Assembly: GCA_965249325.1 (NCBI GenBank)
Contig: CBDFLP010000012.1
Span: 6,428 to 70,427 of the forward strand
DNA length: 64,000 bases
Source: Dehalococcoidia bacterium
GTDB lineage: Bacteria; Chloroflexota; Dehalococcoidia; Lucifugimonadales; Australimonadaceae
Reading direction: 5' to 3'
The position numbers were made by a program, and so were the translations under genes. The stretch's first letter is position 1. The number at the start of each line of letters is the position of its first letter. Shown one piece after another: positions 2-47,121 of this stretch. A model generated the notes under the pieces. The model ran no database searches. It saw nothing but the letters and a program-made list of their open reading frames with translations, and was not told the origin of the DNA.

Positions 2-1315
2 CGCATTGAAGAGGCGGCGCGCCTCTACGCAGAGGCCGTCGCGGGCGCGATTCTGCTTGGCGGCGACAACTCAGTGGGCGGCACGCGGCGCACCATCTCC
101 CGCATGGCCGCCGCGCTCGCCCTCGCCACCGGCAACGTGGGCAAGCCCGGCGCCGGCGTTATGCCGGTCTACCACGGGGCCAATGAGCAGGGCGCGTGGG
201 ACATGGGCGTGTGGTCGAACTCCATACCGGGCCACCACCTCCTGAGCGAGCAGTCAGCTGTCGAGTCGCTGGGAGAGTCCTGGGGCGCTCAGCTATCCGG
301 CGAGCCCGGCGTCGGCAACCGGCACGTCTTCGACAACGCGCGCGACGGCCAAGTGAAGGCCATGGTCGTCCTCGGCGACCACGTCCACTATGAGGACGGC
401 GGCCTAGGCGACACGCTGGCGGGCTTGGACAAGCTCGATTTCCTCGTCGTCAGCGATGCGTTCATGTCCGCGGCGGCAGAAAGGGCTGACGTTGTCTTCC
501 CGGCCGAGGTATGGGCTGAGAAGACTGGCACGTACACGAACATCGAACGCCGCGTCCAGCCGTTGCGCAAGGTGCTCAAGAACAAGCGGACTGAGTCCAG
601 GAGCGACCTCGAAGTCATTGCGGGCATCGCGCGCGCCATGGGCGGGGACGGGTTCGACTACGAGGGGCCGGAGCAAGCGCTTGACGAAATCGCGCGGGTA
701 GTCCCGGAGTATGCCGGGATCTCTTACCGGCGGCTGCTGCGCGAGCGAATCGAGGTCGCGACGCCGCCGGACAACGAGCCGCAACCGACCCAGGTTATGT
801 ACACGGGCAACGTCCTGTCCGGGATTCAATGGCCGTGCAAGGACGAGAACGATGCCGGCGCGCCCGTGATGTATGCGAACGGCTTTCGTCACGGCAAGGC
901 GGCGCTTCAACCGGTTGCGTGGCATCCCCGCCCGGCGCGGAACTCGCAGTTTCCGATGATGCTCGCCCACGGACGCGTGCTGATCCAATCGGGGCGCAAG
1001 CCGGAAGTGGTCAGCGACGGTAAGCGCAACCGTGTCGAGCGCGAGGAGATGCTCGTCCTGAACCCGGCTGACGCCGCAGCCGTGGGCCTCGTCGACGGAC
1101 AGCAGGCGGTCGTGGTCACGGAGCAAGGCTTCGAGAAGCGCGGTATGGTCGCGGCGTCGGATGCCGTCCCAGCAGGCGTCGTGTCCTTGACCACTTTGTT
1201 TGGAGAGCTTGCGGTTGAGGTTGACTCCTCGGACCGCCCGGACCCGACGAACCATATCCCCAGACTCAATGCGGCACCGGCCAGAATCGGCCCCGCACAG
1301 CCGGAGCAAGCATGA
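2..1315 (+). CDS. Molybdopterin-dependent oxidoreductase, C-terminal portion (formate dehydrogenase alpha / NuoG-like); 5' end outside window
   Basis: The frame stays open upstream of the listed 74..1315 ORF back to nt 2 (RIEEAARLYAEAVAGAILLGGDN...). It has a GANEQGAWDMG-type motif and a C-terminal molybdopterin-dinucleotide-binding-like segment (LVLNPADAAAVGLVDGQQAVVVTEQG). The stop overlaps the next start (ATGA 1312-1315). Confidence 0.8.
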   Translation, partial: RIEEAARLYAEAVAGAILLGGDNSVGGTRRTISRMAAALALATGNVGKPGAGVMPVYHGANEQGAWDMGVWSNSIPGHHLLSEQSAVESLGESWGAQLSGEPGVGNRHVFDNARDGQVKAMVVLGDHVHYEDGGLGDTLAGLDKLDFLVVSDAFMSAAAERADVVFPAEVWAEKTGTYTNIERRVQPLRKVLKNKRTESRSDLEVIAGIARAMGGDGFDYEGPEQALDEIARVVPEYAGISYRRLLRERIEVATPPDNEPQPTQVMYTGNVLSGIQWPCKDENDAGAPVMYANGFRHGKAALQPVAWHPRPARNSQFPMMLAHGRVLIQSGRKPEVVSDGKRNRVEREEMLVLNPADAAAVGLVDGQQAVVVTEQGFEKRGMVAASDAVPAGVVSLTTLFGELAVEVDSSDRPDPTNHIPRLNAAPARIGPAQPEQA

Positions 1316-6127: not shown

Positions 6128-6937
6128 TTGCAGAGGTGGGCCATGGTCGATGAGCTGGTGAGGGAGCAAACCGAGACGGCGACGACGCAAGACCTCGCGG
6201 AGCAGTTCGCCCTGCGCCCCGACCTCGACGAGTCGCCTGAGTTCCTCGGCGGCCTATACAACCTGTCGGTCTGGAAGCCTAAGGACGCCGAGCACCGGTA
6301 CTTTCAGGAGCATGCTCCGAAGGCTGGCGAAGTCGCGCCGGACTTCACCCTCCCGCTCCTGGACGGCGGAGAGATTACTCTTTCGTCGCTGCGCGGGAAG
6401 CCGGTGATGATTGAGTTCGGCTCCGTCACCTGACCGCCGTGCGTAGCGGAGTCTCCGCTAATGGAACAGCTGGCCAAGCGGTATGCGGACGACGCGCACT
6501 TCCTGTTCGTCTACGTCCGCGAAGCACACCCCGGCGAGGCCTACCCGCCGCACCAGTACTACGAGCAGAAGACGCTGCACGCGAGGTCGTTCAGGGAGCG
6601 TCTGGGCATCGAGCGCACGATCGCAATCGATTCCCTGCAAGGCAAAGTGCACAGGGTGTACGGCGGCGTGTCGAACATGTCTTGGATCGTTGATCACACG
6701 GGCCGCGTCGCCTACCGGGCGGCATGGACAGTCGCGGACGACATAGAGTGGGCGCTCACGGAGATCATCGCGTCGCGGGAGCTGAAGCGCAGCGGGAAGT
6801 CCACCGCCACGTTCTACCGCGAGATCGTGGGGCTCCGGCCGCAACGCGCGCCGCTGGAGGGACTGCCGCGCTTCATGGGAGGCGCGGTGGCGGCGCGGCA
6901 GTTCGAAGCAGCCAAAGGGCGGACGGATCGGGGCTGA
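6128..6937 (+). CDS. Thioredoxin-fold, iodothyronine-deiodinase-like protein with in-frame UGA (probable selenocysteine at 6431-6433)
   Basis: ORFs 6128..6433 and 6461..6937 share one frame and are separated only by TGA. The context FGSVT-TGA-PPC puts the TGA at the nucleophile position of the GSxT[C/U]PP motif, and VYVREAHPGE follows downstream. A hairpin begins 10 nt after the TGA. Confidence 0.7.
6444..6460 (+). other. Putative bacterial SECIS hairpin
   Basis: Perfect 7-bp stem tagcgga / tccgcta with loop gtc, starting 10 nt after TGA 6431-6433. Confidence 0.55.
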
Positions 6938-23242: not shown

Positions 23243-23258
23243 CGCTTCGGAGGACGAC

Positions 23259-24080
23259 ATGGCCGACTACGCTCGCGCAGACCTGCTCGTCGAGACTGAT
23301 TGGCTCGCCGACCACCTCGGCGACCCCAACGTCCGAGTGGTTGAGATGGCCCAGGAAGGCGGCGACTTCGAGGCAGGGCATATCCCCGGCGCCGCGCTCT
23401 CTCCCACCTGGCAGATTAAAGGAACGGAGAACACGCGGCTGGTCGCGCCCCCGGACGAGGCCAAAGCCTGGTTTGAGTCCGTCGGCATCGGCGACGATAC
23501 GCTGGTGGTCGGCTACGACCGCTTCCACAGTCGCGACGCTGGGCGCTTGTGGTGGGTGCTCAACTACTACGGGCACACGAACGTGAAGGTGCTCAACGGC
23601 GGATGGACCAAGTGGCTGGCGGAGGGGAGGGCGGTCGCGTCGGGCCCTTCGACGGTCGCCGCCGGTGGCGCGTTCACCCCCAAGGGGCCGGACCACGAGA
23701 TCGAGTCCACCGTGGAGAAGCTCAAGGACGCGATCGGACGAGACGACGTCGTTATCTGGGACGTCCGCTCGGACGCCGAGTACAGCGGAGAGAACGCTCG
23801 GGGCAATGCCCGCTTCGGTCACGTGCCGGGCGCGGTTCATCTGGAATGGACGCATCTGATGGCCGCCGACGATACGTTCAAGCCCCCGGAGGAGCTGGAG
23901 GCCCTCACGCGCGGTCTCGGGATAACGCCTGAGAAGACCGTACATATCTACTGACAGGGCGGAGTGCGTGCGGCGCACGCAGCATTCGTCCTGGCGTTGA
24001 TCGGCCACCCTCGAGCCTGCATGTACGACGGCTCGATGGGCGAATGGGCCAACCGCGACGACACGCCATTGGAGACGTAG
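23259..24080 (+). CDS. Two-domain rhodanese (thiosulfate/3-mercaptopyruvate sulfurtransferase-like) with in-frame UGA at the catalytic Cys position (probable selenocysteine, 23952-23954)
   Basis: Start is MADYARADLLVETDWLADHL. The frame continues through TGA: ...KTVHIY-TGA-QGGVRAAHAAFVLALIGHP.ACMYDGSMGEWANRDDTPLET, ending at TAG 24078-24080. The TGA replaces the Cys of the rhodanese active-site loop Y-C-x-x-G-x-R. Confidence 0.7.
23965..23981 (+). other. Putative bacterial SECIS hairpin
   Basis: Perfect 7-bp stem tgcgtgc / gcacgca with loop ggc, starting 10 nt after TGA 23952-23954. The spacing is the same as at 6444. Confidence 0.55.
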
Positions 24081-24120: not shown

Positions 24121-24156
24121 AGGGGGAGCGCCGCGATTGTCACGGGCGCTCCCCCT
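24121..24156. terminator. Bidirectional terminator-like hairpin
   Basis: 12-bp inverted repeat agggggagcgcc / ggcgctccccct between convergent genes ending at 24080 (+) and 24181 (-). Confidence 0.55.
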
Positions 24157-27957: not shown

Positions 27958-28548
27958 GCGGGGTTGGCGCTGTCGATCTCGGAGCAGCCATAGTTGTTGC
28001 AGGCGACGACCCAGTAGTAGTTGTGGCTGTCGTCGGGGTCGGTGTGCGTGTAACTGGTGACGGTAAGCTCGGTCGCAAGCTCGTCGCAGAAGCTCGGTCC
28101 GCTGCTACCCAGCCGGCAACTCGAGTCGAAGAAGTCGTCGTAGTAGACGGTGTAGGACTCCGCATCCGCGGAGGCGTCCCAGGTGAGGACGATGGCCGAG
28201 CCGTCGTACTCGTAACGCTGGTTGGCGGGCGCAACGGGCGGAGAGCCGCCGAGCTGGGCGGGGTTGGCGCTGTCGATCTCGGAGCAGCCATAGTTGTTGC
28301 AGGCGACGACCCAATAGTAGTTGCGGCTGGTGTCGGGGTCGGTGTGTGTAACTGGTGGCGGTAAGCTCGGTCGCAAGCTCGTCGCAGAAGCTCGGTCCGC
28401 TGCTACCCAGCCGGCAACTCGAGTCGAAGAAGTTGTCGTAGTAGACGGTGTAGGAGGCGGCATCCGCGGAGGCGTCCCAGGTGAGGACGATGGCCGAGCC
28501 GTCGTACTCGTAACGCTGGTTGGCAGGCGCAACGGGCGGAGGGCCGCC
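27958..28548 (-). repeat. About 300-bp tandem duplication inside the LRR gene (FN3-like module x2)
   Basis: 27958-28250 and 28258-28548 are near-identical by eye. The upstream (5') copy has gtgtgtgta where the other has gtgtgcgtgta, a 2-nt deletion that causes the frame change. Confidence 0.85.
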
Positions 28549-28954
28549 GGTGGTCGGAGTCGGGACCGGAGTTGGAGTCGGGACTGGAGTCGGGGTCGGC
28601 ATCGGGGTCGCCGTCACCGTCGCCGTCACCGTCGCCCTGGCGGTATCGGTGGCAGGGGCGGCCCCTCTTGCGTTGTCTCCGATGCCGCGCCCGCTTACGG
28701 CGAGGGTGAAAGTAAGTTCGACTCCCGCCGCCAGCGCCGGAATCGTCACCACCGGAGTGGCGCTCCCGTGATTGTCAAACCTTACCGTCACTCCGCTTGC
28801 GGGGCTGGTCAGCGCCCAGGAGTAAATGACATTCGCGCCCCACGGCCCGCCATCGCTGCCGCTGCCGTCGAGCGTCACATCGCCCCCCGCAGTCGGAACC
28901 GCTCCGTCATCCGGCCGGGCATCCGCCGTGGGGGCGAAGGGTGCGCCTGGATTA

Positions 28955-29545
28955 TCCCCCAGGTACAGATTCGCCAGCCCGGTCAGATCGTTGAAGACGC
29001 CGTCGGGAAGCGTGGTTAGCGCGTTGCTGTTCAGACTCAGATCCGTCAGCGCGGTCAGCCCGTCGAACACCCTGGCGCGAAGCGTGGTCAGGCCATTGTT
29101 GCCCAGAAGCAAAATCCTCACCCCGGTCAGATCGTCGAACACCCCGGCGGGAAGCGTGGTCAGACGGTTGTTGCCCAGGGCCAGAGTCTCCAGCGCGGTC
29201 AGGTTGTCGAACACCCCGTCGGGAAGCGTGGTCAGACGGTTGTTGCCCAGGACCAGAGTCTCCAGCGCGGTCAGGTTGTCGAACACCCCGTCGGGAAGCG
29301 TGGTCAGCGCGTTGCTGTTCAGGTTCAGTTCCGTCAGCATGGTCAGGTCGTCGAACACCCCGTCGGGAAGCGTGGTCAGCGCGTTGCTGTACAGCTGCAG
29401 TTCCGTCAGCGCCGTCAAATCGTCGAACACCTCGTCGGGAAGCGTGGTCAGCGCGTTATATGACAGGTCCAACTCCCTCAGCGAGGTCAGCCCGTCGAAG
29501 TCCCCTTCGGCGAGCGCAGCTATGCGCTGGTTGCTGAGATCCAGC
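28955..29545 (-). repeat. 72-bp tandem coding repeats (LRR units)
   Basis: The unit gtcgaacaccccgtcgggaagcgtggtcag(a/c)g(c/g)gtt(g)... recurs, encoding ...LTTLPDGVFD.LT.L..L.L..N. Confidence 0.85.
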
Positions 29546-30170
29546 TGACGGGTGATGGCGGCGAGATGGGCGTCGGTGACGTCGGCGCAGTCGATGGCCA
29601 CGCCCTGATCAGCCTCGATCAGGCGCAGCAACTCGACGCGCACCTCAGTTGTGCGCCCGCAGATGCCAGAGCTTGCGCTACGAAGTTGTAGACCACACCG
29701 TTGATGGTCGCATCCGTGATGTTGATGCTGCTCCTGCTGGTGAAGAACAGGAAACTCCCGCGACCGGACGAGTCGACCGAGAACTCGACGCTGCGCCGGG
29801 ATACGTACAGCTCTCCCCGGAGCCAACAATCAACCCCGGGCGGCACACGTCCGTGCCCTGCGCGCCCACGGGGGCAAGGGCCGCAAGGGCAGACGCCGCG
29901 ACTGCAAGCACCAGCGCGGCTGCCATCAGGAGCTTCCGCCGTGGGCGGCGTCCCGTAGCCTGCGCGGGCCGGTTGTCCAGAGCCCTCGCTTGACCCGCTT
30001 GCTTGAAGAACTGCATGAACATCCACTCCACGACTGCAAGCGACTATGTCATCGTTCCCGATGTTTAGGTCCACTCCCAGTGCCTTAGCGCCACGAGAGA
30101 GGAAGTCGTGGCTCGCGTTGTGGGCGAAAGACTTGTCCTTCATCCTCTTGGGCACGGCCGACAGGCGCGG

Positions 30171-37765: not shown

Positions 37766-38062
37766 CTATGCGCTTCTCGGCGCGACAGGCAATCTCCGCA
37801 CGGCTGCTCCGGCGTGTTCCTCGGCGACGGCGAGATCGAACTGCGTCTGAAGGTTCAGCCAGAACTGGGGGTCGACGTCGAACCAGTGTCCCAGGCGGAG
37901 GGCCGTGTCGCCGGTCACTGAGCGCTTGCCCGCGATAATCTGACTGATGCGGTTGGGCGGGACATCGATTGCGCGCGCGAACGCCGTCGGGCTGACGCCC
38001 AGCTCGTCGAGCTCATCCTTCAGCACCTCTCCGGGGTGAACAGCGCGCCTGAACATTCCCAT
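37766..38062 (-). CDS. higA: HigA-type antitoxin (XRE-family HTH)
   Basis: Start is at MGMFRRAVHPGEVLKDELDELGVSPTAFARAIDVPPNRISQIIAGKRSVTGDTALRLGHWF, the canonical HigA/VapI HTH_3 pattern. Confidence 0.8.
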   Translation of the reverse strand: MGMFRRAVHPGEVLKDELDELGVSPTAFARAIDVPPNRISQIIAGKRSVTGDTALRLGHWFDVDPQFWLNLQTQFDLAVAEEHAGAAVRRLPVAPRSA

Positions 38063-38072
38063 CGTCTCCTCT

Positions 38073-38357
38073 CTAATGGTAGTCGACAATCTCGACTTCG
38101 GTTGGACCAGCGTGGCCGCTAGGCCAGCTGAAGCAGATACGCCATTGCCGGTTGATGCGGATGGCATACAGTCCTTCCCGATCACCCCTGAGCGTCTCCA
38201 GGCGGTTGCTGGGCAACGCTCGCAAAGTATCCAGCGACGGCGCAGCGTTCAGGACTGAGAGCCGCTTGGCCGCCTGCTGCTCGAATCCTTGGAATGCTGC
38301 AACGAACGCGCCGCCGGCGAATAATTCGGTCCGCTTGCCCCCGTACCCGAGAATCAT
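38073..38357 (-). CDS. higB: HigB-type toxin (RelE/ParE superfamily, plasmid maintenance killer-like)
   Basis: Start is at MILGYGGKRTELF. ...LRALPSNRLETLRGDREGLYAIRINRQWRICFSW..G...EVEIVDYH matches the HigB C-terminal signature. It lies 10 nt upstream of higA. Confidence 0.75.
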   Translation of the reverse strand: MILGYGGKRTELFAGGAFVAAFQGFEQQAAKRLSVLNAAPSLDTLRALPSNRLETLRGDREGLYAIRINRQWRICFSWPSGHAGPTEVEIVDYH

Positions 38358-38442
38358 GGTAAGAAGATAGCACATCGTGTGACGATGTACGTCAATCGTA
38401 CATGCAAGCGCCAGGTATAGCAAGGACGATTCACACGTCTCC

Positions 38443-38763: not shown

Positions 38764-39270
38764 ATGAAGCGAATGATGAGTGTGATGGTGATGGCTCTGG
38801 TGTTGTTCGTCTCTTGCCAAGATGCAACACCGGAACCACTTCCCACACCTGTTTCATACAACTGGCTATACTAAACCTATCAGCGAGAACGTGAAGCTAA
38901 CCCCACACGACTAGAGCAGAGAATAAAAGTCAGGCCACTTCATGTTGTCGAAGGACCGATTACCAGCATTCAGGGTTCGAAAATTCAATTCCATATTCGG
39001 CAAGTAATGCTGGGGAAAGACAAGTATGTTGAGTGTGTCTTCCCAGAGGACCGTTACGTGTTGGCTCTAAATATTGGGGAGACGGTATTAGTTGCAGGTA
39101 GACTAGATAGGGCCGATGAGGTTGTCAGGTTGACTGGCTGCATCCTGGTTCCTAAAGGCTACTTTTCCAATGAGCTGCTAAAGTTGACTCCTACTGCAGG
39201 GCCAACTCCAACCCCCACTGCGACACCACTCCCAACTCCCACTGCGGGGCCAACTCCAACCCCCCTGTGA
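38764..39270 (+). pseudogene. OB-fold (tRNA_anti-like) lipoprotein interrupted by in-frame TAA at 38872-38874
   Basis: MKRMMSVMVMALVLFVSC (lipobox) ...SYNWLY-TAA-TYQREREANPTRLEQRIKVRPLHVVEGPITSIQ... continues in the same frame into listed ORF 39007..39270, and a PT-rich tail follows. The region is visibly low in GC. Confidence 0.5.
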
Positions 39271-39410
39271 CACCGACCCCCCAGAACGTGACACTACCCC
39301 GCTGACCCCACCCGCCCCGCCTGCTACGATGACCCTTGCAATGGTCTTCCACGGGACAGAGCATCTATGCCGGCAGAGGCCAAGCAGGTGAAGGAGGAGA
39401 GAGAGGAACG

Positions 39411-39839
39411 ATGAAAGTCCTAGGCGTAGGTTTGCTCACCGTGCTCTGTGTGGCAGTTGGATGCGGCGGCGATCCAGGTCCCACGGCTACGCCCGTCGTG
39501 TGCGAGACAGACTTTTCGGCATTCGAGAAAAAGGGCATCGTCCACGATGACTATCAGGGCATCTGTGTTGAAGACGGCGGCTACTACCTGTACTTGACAT
39601 TGAGAAACAATACGGATGAACCCTTTCGCCTAAGTCTATTGCAAGGGGACAAAGACCCAAAAATCTTATACGAAGTGGGCAGGAAGTCCCTCAATGATGC
39701 CGCAGTCTATTTGTTGAAGGTGTGCCCATCCGACTGTGATGCAACGCAGGGGCAGGTGCAGATAGAAGTTGACGCTCCCGATGCCCCAGCCGATGTTGAG
39801 TGGGCAGTGCGAGTGGAAAAGAAAATAGACTCAACATGA
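39411..39839 (+). CDS. Hypothetical Cys-rich lipoprotein
   Basis: ATG 39411 lies behind AGGAGGAGAGAGAGG. The lipobox is MKVLGVGLLTVLCVAVGCGG. There is no recognisable domain, and composition is low GC like the preceding gene. Confidence 0.55.
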   Translation: MKVLGVGLLTVLCVAVGCGGDPGPTATPVVCETDFSAFEKKGIVHDDYQGICVEDGGYYLYLTLRNNTDEPFRLSLLQGDKDPKILYEVGRKSLNDAAVYLLKVCPSDCDATQGQVQIEVDAPDAPADVEWAVRVEKKIDST

Positions 39840-39890
39840 ACGGCAGCGCCATTCACTACAGCCCACGTTTGCTGCGGCGATACGGCGATT

Positions 39891-41085: not shown

Positions 41086-41964
41086 GTGACCTCCGGCGCG
41101 TGGCCGACCATACCTCCTACGTTCCTTGCTCTCGACCCGAGCGAGCATTCCCTGGAGCGGTCGCGGTGGGTCATCCTGCCCGTGCCCTATGAGGCCACGA
41201 CGAGCTACCGGAAGGGAACGCAGGCGGGTCCTGCAGCCATCATCCGCGCGTCGGTTGAGATGGAGGACTACGACCCAGAGTTCGGGTACGACCCCTGCGA
41301 CGCCGGCATCTACACGGCCCCGCCCATCGAGCCCGCCCTCGCCGGTCCCGAGGCGATGGCCCGCCGAGTCGCGGAGGCCGTCGGCGCGTACGCGGACGCC
41401 GACAAGCTCGTGGGGATGCTTGGCGGCGAGCACTCCATCTCGTCGGGGGCGGTGGCGACCCTAGCGGAGCGGCGGCCCGGCCTGAGCGTCCTCGTGTTCG
41501 ACGCCCAAGCCGACCTGCGCGACGAGTATCAGGGCGCCGCGTACAGCCATGCGTGCGCTACGCGACGGATGCTCGATCACGCGGCGGCGACCATCGTCGG
41601 TGTCCGCAGCATGACAGGGGACGAGGCGGCGTTCGCGGCGGAGCGGGGCGTTCCTCTGTTCCTACGGGGCGCTGAGCCGATTACGGACGTGGGCGCAATC
41701 GTCGACACGCTCGCCGAGGACGTCTACGTGTCGTTCGACCTCGACGCCTTCGACCCGTCGTTCATGGCGGCGGTCGGCACGCCTGAGCCGGGGGGCATGG
41801 GCTGGTGGGAGGCGCTGCGGATACTTCGCGCCGTGGGGGAGCGTCGCCGCATAGTGGGCTTCGACGTCGTCGAGCTATCGCCCGGCGAGGGTCCCGAGGC
41901 GTGCGCATATACAGCCGCGAAGCTGGCGTACAAGCTTATCGCTTACGCGTCGCTTGGGGGGTAG
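41086..41964 (+). CDS. speB: Agmatinase / ureohydrolase family protein
   Basis: 292 aa with arginase-family Mn motifs GGEHSIS, VFDAQADL and SFDLDAFDPSFMAAVGTPEPGG. Confidence 0.85.
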   Translation: MTSGAWPTIPPTFLALDPSEHSLERSRWVILPVPYEATTSYRKGTQAGPAAIIRASVEMEDYDPEFGYDPCDAGIYTAPPIEPALAGPEAMARRVAEAVGAYADADKLVGMLGGEHSISSGAVATLAERRPGLSVLVFDAQADLRDEYQGAAYSHACATRRMLDHAAATIVGVRSMTGDEAAFAAERGVPLFLRGAEPITDVGAIVDTLAEDVYVSFDLDAFDPSFMAAVGTPEPGGMGWWEALRILRAVGERRRIVGFDVVELSPGEGPEACAYTAAKLAYKLIAYASLGG

Positions 41965-42040
41965 GCTTCCCTGGGGGCTCATGCCCACCCCTCCTCGGTC
42001 CTCCCCCGCGGATGGGGGAGGAAGAGATAGAGTGAGCGCC

Positions 42041-43234
42041 ATGGCGAGCAGGCCTGACCGCACCATCTATATGGATCACGCCGCGACCACGGCCATCGCG
42101 CCTGAAGTGGTCGAGGCGATGCGGCCCTACCTGACAGAGGGATACGGCAACCCGTCGAGCATCTACGCGCTTGGGCAGCAGGCGCGTCGCGCCATCGACG
42201 ACGCGCGGGAGCGGTGCGCCAAGGTCTTGGGCGCTCGGGCGGGGGAGATCGTCTTCACGAGCGGCGGGACCGAGTCGGACAACGCCGGCATCATGGGCCC
42301 AGCCCTGGCGCTGAAGGACCAAGGCCGTCACATCGTGACCACGAAGATCGAGCACCACGCGGTGCTGCACGCGGCCGCGCTGCTGGAAACGCTCGGCTGG
42401 GAAGCGTCCTACGTCGCGCCCAGCAAGGACGGCGTCGTGCGTGCGGGGGACGTGCTAGACGCGGTGCGGCGGGAGACGACCGTCGTGAGCGTGATGCTGG
42501 CGAACAACGAGATCGGGACGGTCCAGCCCGTCGCCGAGGTCGCGCGCCTCGTGAAGGAGCGCGCATCGGTGGAGCGCCGGTCGATTGTCGTACACACGGA
42601 CGCGGTGCAGGCTGCGGGAGCGATGCCGGTGGACGTGGACGCCCTAGGCGTCGACCTCCTCTCGCTCTCGGCCCACAAGTTCAACGGCCCCAAGGGAGTC
42701 GGACTGCTGTACGTCCGGCGCGGCACGCCATTCACGCCCACGCAGGTCGGCGGCGGACAGGAGCGCGACCGGCGCGCGGGCACGGAGAACACCGCGGGCA
42801 TCGTCGGCATGAGCGTTGCGCTCGAGAACGCGGAGCGCCGCCGCGCCCGGAACGCGGCGGCCTGCGCCGGGCTGCGCGACCGGTTGGTCAGCGGCATCCT
42901 CGAACGGGTGGAGCGCGTCGAGGTGAACGGAGACCTCGACGCGAGGCTGCCGGGCAACGTGAACGTCTCCTTCCCCGGGGTGGAGGCCGAGCCGCTGCTG
43001 ATGGGGCTCGACCTCGCGGGAATCGCGGCGTCGAGCGGCAGCGCGTGTACGGCGGGCTCGCTGGAGCCGTCGCATGTTCTGCTGGCGTTGGGGCGGTCGA
43101 CGGAGGCGGCGAGGACGAGCCTCCGGCTCACGGTCGGGCCGGAGAACACCGAGGAGGAGGTGGACTACGTGGTGGAGACGATAGCCCGCTTGGCGCCCAA
43201 GCTGCGGGCGCTCTCCCGAAATGGGAGAGGCTAG
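42041..43234 (+). CDS. Cysteine desulfurase (NifS/IscS class, PLP-dependent)
   Basis: Start is at MASRPDRTIYMDHAATT. The PLP lysine motif is SLSAHKFNGPKG and the catalytic loop is SSGSACTAGSLEPSHVL. Only the 3' part of ORF 41954..43234 upstream of this start is uncertain. Confidence 0.9.
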   Translation: MASRPDRTIYMDHAATTAIAPEVVEAMRPYLTEGYGNPSSIYALGQQARRAIDDARERCAKVLGARAGEIVFTSGGTESDNAGIMGPALALKDQGRHIVTTKIEHHAVLHAAALLETLGWEASYVAPSKDGVVRAGDVLDAVRRETTVVSVMLANNEIGTVQPVAEVARLVKERASVERRSIVVHTDAVQAAGAMPVDVDALGVDLLSLSAHKFNGPKGVGLLYVRRGTPFTPTQVGGGQERDRRAGTENTAGIVGMSVALENAERRRARNAAACAGLRDRLVSGILERVERVEVNGDLDARLPGNVNVSFPGVEAEPLLMGLDLAGIAASSGSACTAGSLEPSHVLLALGRSTEAARTSLRLTVGPENTEEEVDYVVETIARLAPKLRALSRNGRG

Positions 43235-45081: not shown

Positions 45082-47121
45082 ATGCCCAACCTCCTTATCA
45101 ACGAGACTTCTCCCTACCTGCTGCAGCACGCTCATAATCCGGTGGACTGGCGGCCGTGGGGCGAGGAAGCGTTCGCGAAGGCCAGGGCGGAGGACAAGCC
45201 CGTCCTCGTTTCCATCGGCTACGCGGCGTGTCACTGGTGCCATGTGATGGAGCGCGAGTCCTTCGAGGATGAGACGGTCGCGCAGAAGATGAACGACCTC
45301 CTTGTCCCCATCAAAGTCGACCGCGAGGAGCGGCCCGACATCGACGGCATCTATATGGAGGCAATCCAGCGCATGCACGGGCACGGCGGCTGGCCGCTCA
45401 ACGTGTTCCTCATGCCGGACGGAAGGCCGTTCTACGGGGGGACGTACTTTCCGCCGACCGACCGCGGTGGCATGCCCTCCTGGTCCAAGGTGATCGACGC
45501 GGTGGCGGACGCCTATTACACGCGCCGGGACGCAGTCCTGGAGAACGCGCGCATCCTGACCGAGGCGCTCAGGACGTCGTCGCAGATGGACTCGCCCGAT
45601 GAGGCGGTGCGGGAGTCGACGCTGGACCTGGCCTACCGGGGCCTGGCGTCGATGTTCGACCCAGAGCATGGAGGCTTCGGCGGCGCTCCCAAGTTTCCAC
45701 AGTCGATGCCCCAAGAGTTCCTCCTCCGGTACTACGCCAGGACCGGTGAGGAGCACCCGCGCGAAATGGTGGAGGTCTCGCTTCAGCGGATGGCGAACGG
45801 GGGCATCTACGATCACCTGGGCGGTGGGTTCGCCCGGTATTCAACGGACGGTTTCTGGCTCGTGCCGCACTTCGAGAAGATGCTGTACGACAACGGGCTT
45901 CTCGCCTCGCTCTACCTTCAGGGGTTCCAAATCACGGGCGACCAACGCTACCGGGTGGTAGTGGAAGAGACGCTGGACTATCTGCTGCGCGATCTCCGGC
46001 ATGCCGACGGCGGCTTCTTCTCGTCGCAGGACGCCGACAGCGAAGGCGTCGAGGGGAAGTACTACGTATGGGCGCAGAGCGAGGTCGAACGTCTCCTGGG
46101 CGATGATGCGGCCTTGTTCATCCGCTACTACGGGGTGACTTCGCACGGCAACTTCGAGGGCCGCAACATACTCAATGTCCCGGACAGCGCCGCCGCCGCG
46201 GCGGCCGACCTGGGCGTGAGCGTCGACGAGCTTACCGAGCGCCTAGCGCCGATGCGTCAGACGCTTCTGGAGGAGCGGACCAAGCGCATCCCGCCCGCGA
46301 CCGACGATAAGGTGCTGACGGGCTGGAACGGCCTTGCCTTGCGGACGCTGTCGGAGGCCGCTTTCGTGCTGGACCGGCCCGACTACCGCGAGGCGGCTGA
46401 ACGCAACGCCGAATTCCTGCTCCGCGAGCTGCGCCCGGACGGGCGTGTACTGCGGACCTGGAAGGACGGTCGGGCGCATCTCGCCGGTTATCTGGAAGAC
46501 TATGCGCTGCTCATCAACGGGCTGCTCTCTCTGCACGCCGCGACCTTCTCGCGCCGGTGGCTCGTGGAAGCCAAGCATCTGGTCGACGAGATGATCGGGC
46601 TGTTCTGGGATGCCACAGCGGAGGCGTTCTACGACGTGGGGACCGACCACGAGGAGCTGATTGTCCGGCCCCGCGACACGTTCGATAACGCGGTCCCGAG
46701 CGGCGGTTCCGCCGCGGGGGAGGCGCTTCTGCGGGTGGCTGCGCTCACTGGGGACGAAGAGTACGCCGCAAAGGCGGCCCGACTGCTCAGGGGCGTCGCG
46801 CCGCTTGCATCGAGGCATCCAATGGGGTTCGGGAACTGGCTTCGAGCAATCGACCTTCACCTAGCTTCTCCGACGGAAGTGGTCATCGTGGGAGACCCGT
46901 CCTCCGAGGCGACTCGTGCGCTCCTCGCCCCGCTGCGCGAACGGTTCATGCCCACGGCGGCGTTCTTGGGCGTCGCCCCGGGCGATCCTTACTCGTTCTC
47001 GACTCCGCTTATCGAGGGCCGAACGGAGTCCGCCGTTCCGACGGCCTACGTGTGCCACGGGTATTCGTGCGACTTGCCGACGAGCGACCCGAACGTGCTC
47101 GCCGGTCAGCTTGGAGGGTGA
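45082..47121 (+). CDS. Thioredoxin-domain (DUF255) / six-hairpin glycosidase-like protein, YyaL/SSP411 family
   Basis: 679 aa. The canonical N-terminus is [51 protein letters not shown]. Confidence 0.9.

Follow-up and report, generated by a model that had tools for sequence, protein, structure and literature searches.

We examined a 64,000-nucleotide stretch of Dehalococcoidia DNA (contig CBDFLP010000012.1, positions 6,428 to 70,427 of the forward strand; hereafter the window) and propose that its gene at 23259-24080 very probably encodes a two-domain sulfurtransferase of the rhodanese family in which selenocysteine (Sec), specified by an in-frame UGA, replaces the catalytic cysteine. The source belongs to the marine Chloroflexi (SAR202-type), and gene callers still end this family at the UGA. 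The frame, opened by the ATG at 23259, reaches ...GITPEKTVHIY and then an in-frame TGA at 23952-23954; a preliminary description of this DNA had noted that the open reading frame (ORF) ends there, directly after ...KTVHIY, as can be seen in the sequence. Past the TGA, 41 sense codons follow, QGGVRAAHAAFVLALIGHPRACMYDGSMGEWANRDDTPLET, up to the TAG at 24078-24080. The 42 codons counted in the preliminary description include this stop, and the position left as '.' in the tail peptide given there is an arginine. GC content by codon position is alike before (0.68/0.46/0.84) and after the TGA (0.68/0.54/0.80), and the coding signature is thus the same on either side. If the TGA were a stop, a product of 231 residues would be expected, as compared to 273 residues upon read-through.

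The catalytic site and its conservation

All protein comparisons were made with cysteine written at the TGA of the 273-residue product. The Pfam Rhodanese profile matches this product in two stretches (E 2.7e-33), giving the two tandem rhodanese domains (PF00581 twice) of COG2897. An end-to-end alignment was obtained with the Thermus thermophilus protein 1UAR (E 9e-44, query residues 4-271), and Azotobacter vinelandii RhdA (1E0C, E 6e-37), Escherichia coli SseA (1URH) and bovine rhodanese (1RHD) align over the full length as well (E 9e-44 to 6e-27 for the four structures). As in these proteins, an inactive N-terminal domain is followed by a catalytic C-terminal domain with a six-residue loop that starts at the catalytic residue. 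The N-terminal domain carries aspartate at the equivalent of the catalytic residue (...VVGY-D-RFHSRD), as inactive rhodanese domains do, and the C-terminal domain is whole only with the UGA read through, because it spans residues 151-265.

The cysteine placed at the TGA coincides with the catalytic cysteine of the solved two-domain rhodaneses, and the earlier claim that the TGA sits exactly at this position is borne out by the alignments with 1UAR, 1E0C and about 30 cysteine-containing relatives (YCQGGIRAAH...). The C-terminal domain contains a six-residue loop of the form CxxGxR/T, with Sec predicted in place of cysteine: U-Q-G-G-V-R here as compared to CRIAER, CQTHHR, CGSGVT and CRKGVT in 1UAR, 1E0C, 1URH and 1RHD. 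The Y-C-x-x-G-x-R motif had been ascribed to rhodaneses and 3-mercaptopyruvate sulfurtransferases (3-MST) alike; the loop is of the CxxGxR type of rhodanese/thiosulfate sulfurtransferase (TST), and not of the CG[ST]GVT type of 3-MST. The protein also falls outside the 3-MST family (SseA equivalog, NF008557), scoring 113.2 bits against an NCBIfam cut-off of 250.

A protein search returned, among its top matches, about 90 clusters (at 90% identity) of 230-236 residues, all ending in ...H[IVTA]Y and stopping exactly where the window ORF stops at the TGA. Further relatives of about 275 residues are full length and continue with YCQGG[IV]RAAH...YDGSM.EWANRDDTPL. At the DNA level, the 80 best loci from one genome per species (L001-L080) have TGA as catalytic codon in 76 cases and TGC or TGT in 4. 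When metagenome contigs were scanned in addition, starting from cysteine forms, 68 motif-bearing loci with 42 TGA and 26 cysteine codons were obtained. The genomes comprise Dehalococcoidia, SAR202 and other Chloroflexota metagenome-assembled genomes (MAGs) as well as two Candidatus Entotheonella. Judging from 76 of the 80 best genomes, Sec would be the rule rather than the exception in this Dehalococcoidia/SAR202 rhodanese subfamily.

Close relatives are not genuinely truncated, a possibility that the preliminary description had left for checking. An in-frame tail of 38-45 codons leads to a real stop in 76/76 TGA genomes, and the 118 TGA loci, the most distant of which have about 45% protein identity, all share the frame and the conserved tail. 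Within the tail, codons 14-38 after the UGA show pS of 0.63 and pN of 0.20 (proportions of synonymous and non-synonymous differences; pN/pS about 0.32). Synonymous sites are close to being saturated, and the tail is under purifying selection. The window tail differs from that of the closest relative (L001, 94% identical) by 7 synonymous changes and 1 non-synonymous change. The rhodanese of OZ244741.1 is likewise 94% identical to that of the window.

Several side observations concern the distribution of the gene. Outside the Chloroflexota, the Sec form was found in Candidatus Entotheonella, a sponge symbiont (L039 and L055), and several of the Chloroflexota carriers are sponge MAGs (L012, L025, L104 (Aplysina sponge metagenome)); this joint occurrence may reflect inter-phylum transfer or a shared habitat. 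On a quick neighbor-joining tree, which is indicative only, at least 10 switches between Sec and cysteine were counted, suggesting that the two have been exchanged repeatedly in this subfamily. One cysteine form (TGC; L085:601-1416) has a complete Sec-type hairpin, CCGTGC-ggc-GCACGG, together with a CGT arginine codon, and the sequence nearest to it is a Sec form (L051, distance 0.15). This form has the look of a gene converted recently from Sec to cysteine, in which the Sec insertion sequence (SECIS) persists as a fossil.

The hairpin downstream of the UGA

The perfect 7-bp hairpin tgcgtgc-ggc-gcacgca, which had been described 10 nt past the TGA at 23965-23981, is present as stated. Its conserved 6-bp core (23966-23971 with 23975-23980) begins 11 nt past the UGA. 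A 45-nt segment with the UGA at its 5' end folds with -25.2 kcal/mol (z = -3.48), a value matched by only 1 of 200 dinucleotide shuffles, so that the hairpin is more than a chance structure; a longer fold of 71 nt is not significant (z -1.13).

The textbook bacterial SECIS, that of E. coli fdhF, is a hairpin within the coding region that begins 11 nt past the UGA and has a G in its apical loop. The element described here shares this position, this G and a presumed role as SelB site, and differs in its shorter upper stem (6-7 bp), in its 3-nt GGC loop and in that no bulged U is evident. Unlike fdhF, it is made of codons of the active-site loop (I/V-R-A-A-H-G/A), and its binding by SelB is presumed. 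The G in a small apical loop (GGC, on a stem of 6-7 bp) agrees with the wording of the bacterial SECIS description (PMC1088965).

Across 77 aligned Sec forms, the consensus reads UGA, 11 nt, CCGUGC-GGC-GCACGG, and 96.6% of the upper-helix cells are paired when the named structure is counted on this alignment. The outermost conserved stem pair (within the codons at window 23964-23966 and 23979-23981, alignment columns 13-15 and 28-30), which lies in isoleucine and glycine codons in most sequences, has changed from C-G to G-C in 13 distinct sequences, which are the window's own clade, the window included, and there isoleucine (AUC) is replaced by valine (GUG) jointly with glycine (GGN) by alanine (GCN; GCA). 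Further compensatory changes are C-G to A-U in both Entotheonella sequences and G-C to U-A in three sequences, the latter with alanine replaced by serine together with histidine by asparagine. The observed covariation score was reached by 0 of 500 shuffles, and sliding the pairing partners by 1-3 columns lowers the pairing to 35-55%. At the outermost pair, the residues on either side of the catalytic loop seem to be under constraint from RNA pairing.

Codon usage shows the same element from another side. Synonymous divergence is down to 0.22 in the hairpin codons, and the active-site arginine is encoded by CGU in 55 of 57 distinct Sec sequences, as compared to 6.9% of 1127 other arginine codons in the same genes. 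Cysteine forms, which encode nearly the same peptide, served as a control in a pooled contrast of distinct sequences. A complete 6-bp stem was found in 102/113 Sec but 1/30 Cys forms (Fisher p 4e-20) and the CGU codon in 109/113 but 1/30 (Fisher p 7e-25), both p values being indicative only, with shared ancestry ignored. The hairpin is hence conserved, covarying and specific to Sec forms, in line with a SECIS-type element, and hairpin, TGA and frame recur together across 118 independent loci.

A small subgroup of Sec forms with the loop sequence IRAAQS (L043, L126, L133 and L134) is without the standard stem. By eye, a 7-bp hairpin, CAGCGCA-GUC-UGCGCUG, can be read 5 nt further downstream in these sequences (columns 20-36 after the TGA), which suggests a rebuilt SECIS and not a lost one.

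Decoding of the UGA and alternative readings

Following the established bacterial Sec pathway (SelA, SelB, SelC and SelD; fdhF paradigm), SelB with GTP and Sec-tRNA(Sec) would bind the apical part of the hairpin while the ribosome stands at the UGA and would insert Sec, completing the 273-residue enzyme. By analogy with rhodanese chemistry, the selenolate would then accept sulfane sulfur, for instance from thiosulfate, and the resulting enzyme-Se-S(-) intermediate would hand it to an acceptor in a double-displacement cycle.

With respect to the genetic code, TGA terminates 12 other predicted genes in the window and, after the tail, also 12/77 Sec-form rhodanese genes; UGA has therefore not been reassigned. 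A six-frame scan for in-frame TGA codons with a coding signal on both sides returned the rhodanese, a deiodinase-like gene and one antisense artefact, and both real in-frame TGAs fall on catalytic or redox cysteine positions.

The deiodinase-like gene (6128-6937, + strand), a second candidate selenoprotein gene and unrelated to the rhodanese, is the one for which the preliminary description had reported the same UGA-to-hairpin geometry, and this geometry was found: its TGA (6431-6433, ...FGSVT*PPCV..., motif T-U-P-P-C of the UxxC type) is followed after a 10-nt spacer by the hairpin UAGCGGA-GUC-UCCGCUA (6444-6460; 7-bp stem, 3-nt GUC loop). The 60-nt fold at this UGA is not significant (z -0.23). 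The encoded protein is deiodinase-like with an AhpC-TSA thioredoxin fold (Pfam T4_deiodinase, E 1.6e-12; NCBIfam deiodinase_rel, 96.6 bits, under the cut-off of 250), and the true start of the gene may be the ATG at 6143. Deiodinase-like UxxC selenoproteins have been predicted since 2005 and stand in the same published lists as Sec rhodanese.

Several points weigh against a Sec-dependent rhodanese. None of selA, selB, selD and tRNA-Sec lies within the 64-kb window, whose 40 predicted genes include no SelA, SelB or SelD by Pfam annotation and whose only tRNA is a tRNA-Lys, with no further Rfam match. Sec machinery was not seen in the 160 related loci either, and around the 80 genome loci no gene could be convincingly assigned to it, as judged from tRNA searches and from tblastn of E. 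coli SelA, SelB and SelD against the window and L001-L080. No Rfam SECIS model matches at 23930-24030 or 6410-6510 with E up to 10, and RNAalifold alone recovered only 3 pairs from the 77-sequence alignment, neither of which is surprising for an element of 15-17 nt. Moreover, the Fisher tests on stem and CGU disregard common descent, and any assignment of a sulfur donor, of an acceptor or of a benefit from Sec is inference only.

Four matches from these searches were rejected as Sec machinery. The tblastn match in L054 is EF-Tu-like and lies beside tRNA-Thr/Tyr genes, the one in L029 is weak and corresponds to a GTPase, and the SelD-like match in L036 was read as ThiL from its sequence and its TsaE-like neighbour. 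A tRNA-SeC called by ARAGORN at L067:20-114 is a false positive, having no Rfam tRNA or tRNA-Sec match and being unlike bacterial tRNA-Sec.

Two of the genomes with the same TGA rhodanese gene are SAR202 bin16 (MPMJ; L012) and bin22 (MPMM; L025), for which 1 and 2 copies of SelA, 1 and 1 of SelB, and 1 and 1 of SelD have been reported (Slaby et al. 2017, Table S4). Selenoproteins are, moreover, known from the Chloroflexi, among other phyla (PMC1794560).

Very unlikely, in our view, is a former selenoprotein gene that has become silent or truncated in this genome only, after its Sec decoding was lost. For this genome the machinery search was limited to the 64-kb window, and frequent Sec/Cys switches, counted above on the quick tree, and losses of the Sec trait are a general conclusion of PMC1794560, all of which would fit such a loss; yet two different selenoprotein genes of the window both retain an intact UGA, frame and hairpin, and the 7 synonymous changes against 1 non-synonymous change relative to L001 point to ongoing selection on the read-through product.

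We give scarcely any credence to decoding of the UGA as a standard residue (tryptophan, cysteine or glycine) without selenium, be it by reassignment or by near-cognate read-through stimulated by the hairpin. The sequence alone tells that the ribosome must pass the UGA and does not reveal the inserted residue, but the use of TGA as a normal stop in the window and in Sec-form rhodanese genes speaks against it, as do the restriction of TGAs within coding sequence to two redox or catalytic cysteine positions, the fit of the hairpin spacing and small G-containing loop to the bacterial SECIS description (PMC1088965), and the SelA, SelB and SelD of related genomes.

That the TGA is a genuine stop, yielding a 231-residue protein or leaving a pseudogene with a remnant frame downstream, would agree with every public annotation (231-236 aa) and with the machinery not being seen in the window, but it is extremely improbable, as the product would have neither the active-site loop nor the final third of the catalytic domain, a covarying hairpin is not expected in a decaying remnant, and the tail, in frame in every TGA locus and with its low pN/pS, rules out that the gene is truly truncated, a pseudogene or the result of an assembly error.

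We thus retain the two-domain rhodanese with Sec at the catalytic position. With Sec as the default residue and repeated Sec/Cys switching in the subfamily, the enzyme might not be a generic thiosulfate sulfurtransferase but be specialised for chemistry that requires an Se-S or Se-Se intermediate, coupled in this clade to the adjacent transporters of the major facilitator superfamily (MFS); this reading we consider unlikely. Such specialisations could include selenium mobilisation for SelD or, within sponge symbioses and the dark ocean, the handling of sulfane sulfur derived from organosulfur compounds.

Known relatives, gene neighbourhood and significance

The kind of protein has been known since 2005, and its novelty is low. 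As the preliminary description stated, Sec-containing rhodanese-related sulfurtransferases have been predicted from metagenomes: the Sargasso Sea study of 2005 listed a "rhodanese-related sulfurtransferase, COG2897", for which it gave 3 sequences and a drawing of the SECIS (PMC1088965), and the Global Ocean Sampling analysis of 2008 counted 8 Sec versus 3,367 Cys sequences for cd01449 and 1 for COG2897 (PMC2398784). Sec rhodanese was still listed as "predicted" in a 2022 selenoprotein inventory (PMC9312934), and a 2026 inventory has it as a predicted family, "form 4, UxxG", and not among the first "experimentally verified" rows of its table (PMC13188914). No biochemical study of a natural Sec-rhodanese was found in the literature searched, in agreement with the earlier statement that these enzymes have not been studied biochemically.

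The window gene resembles the Sec COG2897/SseA, cd01449 family in its two-domain SseA/TST-type architecture, in Sec at the catalytic cysteine position with the UxxG motif (here U-Q-G-G), in its marine bacterial origin, in a SECIS with G in a small apical loop and in being predicted only. By description, there is no difference in kind from the family of the 2005 and 2008 reports. New here are the Sec majority in Dehalococcoidia/SAR202, in contrast to the counts of PMC2398784, the covariation of the hairpin and the repeated Sec/Cys switching. A further addition is a putative SECIS built from codons of the active-site loop, which would force paired amino-acid changes. Another rhodanese-domain selenoprotein is the "rhodanese-related (seleno)protein" rhodanese_LYCAU (NCBIfam NF041203, form 3). 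It has one domain, about 126 aa and a CxU motif, whereas the window gene encodes two domains with UxxG and is not a member (32.6 bits against a cut-off of 115, with the match in the N-terminal domain).

The features of the gene are compiled in Table 1. The rhodanese start codon lies 17 nt past the stop of the upstream MFS gene, which is the second of two, and a promoter scan gave no promoter-like site between this gene and the rhodanese; the rhodanese gene is probably co-transcribed with both MFS transporter genes. Among the related loci compared, the order MFS-MFS-rhodanese/SIMPL/signal peptidase/tRNA-Lys is confined to the clade of the window itself, and the context therefore offers little functional guidance. 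An inverted repeat where the rhodanese and SIMPL (DUF541) genes converge is a possible terminator; a consensus terminator scan of the + strand made no call there, because of the 12-nt loop.

Table 1. Features of the rhodanese gene and its surroundings (window coordinates).
Feature	Position	Strand	Basis or remark
Shine-Dalgarno-like GGAGG	23249..23253	+	5 nt upstream of ATG; direct reading
Full coding sequence, putative two-domain rhodanese-family selenoprotein, 273 residues, Sec at position 232	23259..24080	+	
N-terminal non-catalytic rhodanese domain, limits approximate	23280..23639	+	Alignments to 1UAR and 1E0C; direct reading
C-terminal catalytic rhodanese domain, residues 151-265	23709..24053	+	Best Pfam stretch, profile positions 1-101 of 102
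UGA, proposed Sec codon at the catalytic Cys position of loop U-Q-G-G-V-R	23952..23954	+	Alignments; TGA in 76/80 genome and 42/68 metagenome loci
Putative extended SECIS stem, lower helix 23956-23962 with 23986-23992 around the upper hairpin	23956..23992	+	83.6% of cells paired, less conserved
Putative upper SECIS hairpin UGCGUGC-GGC-GCACGCA, perfect 7 bp, apical loop GGC	23965..23981	+	10 nt after TGA
True stop codon TAG	24078..24080	+	Direct reading
Possible terminator, 11-bp GC-rich inverted repeat GGGGGAGCGCC / GGCGCTCCCCC, 12-nt loop, then tatcttt	24122..24155	.	Direct reading

Elsewhere in the window, the ORF at 74-1315 (+), apparently truncated where the window begins, resembles the C-terminal portion of a molybdopterin oxidoreductase. 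Molybdopterin oxidoreductases of the formate-dehydrogenase type often contain Sec, encoded close to the N-terminus, and a Sec codon of this gene, if any, would thus lie outside the window. A class-V aminotransferase at 41954-43234 (+) belongs by Pfam to the cysteine desulfurase/selenocysteine lyase family, and a DUF255 thioredoxin-domain protein is encoded at 45082-47121 (+). The gene at 28105-29829 (-) encodes a eukaryote-like leucine-rich-repeat protein of 574 aa (LRR_8, E 6e-49) with no counterpart in the related loci. At 37766-38423 (-), a HigA-like helix-turn-helix antitoxin (37766-38185) overlaps a HigB/RelE-like toxin ORF (38073-38423), and adjoining this pair is a low-GC island (38800-39850; 46-52% as compared to 65%), whose small ORFs, one of them lipoprotein-like, are rich in Pro-Thr repeats. 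HigAB systems have been reported to be enriched in sponge symbionts (Slaby et al. 2017).

The general picture of selenoproteins is unchanged by these findings. In public records, NCBI included, the enzyme appears as a fragment of 231-236 aa without its active site, and it is rarely annotated as a Sec enzyme, as had been noted before; reading the UGA as Sec would restore a complete catalytic domain in the annotation. The natural Sec/Cys pairs, including the cysteine form with the apparent fossil SECIS, would be good material for studying what Sec buys a sulfurtransferase. SAR202/Dehalococcoidia are abundant bacteria of the deep ocean and also sponge-associated. A Sec-dependent rhodanese in most of the sampled relatives would tie a selenium requirement to sulfur handling in these bacteria.

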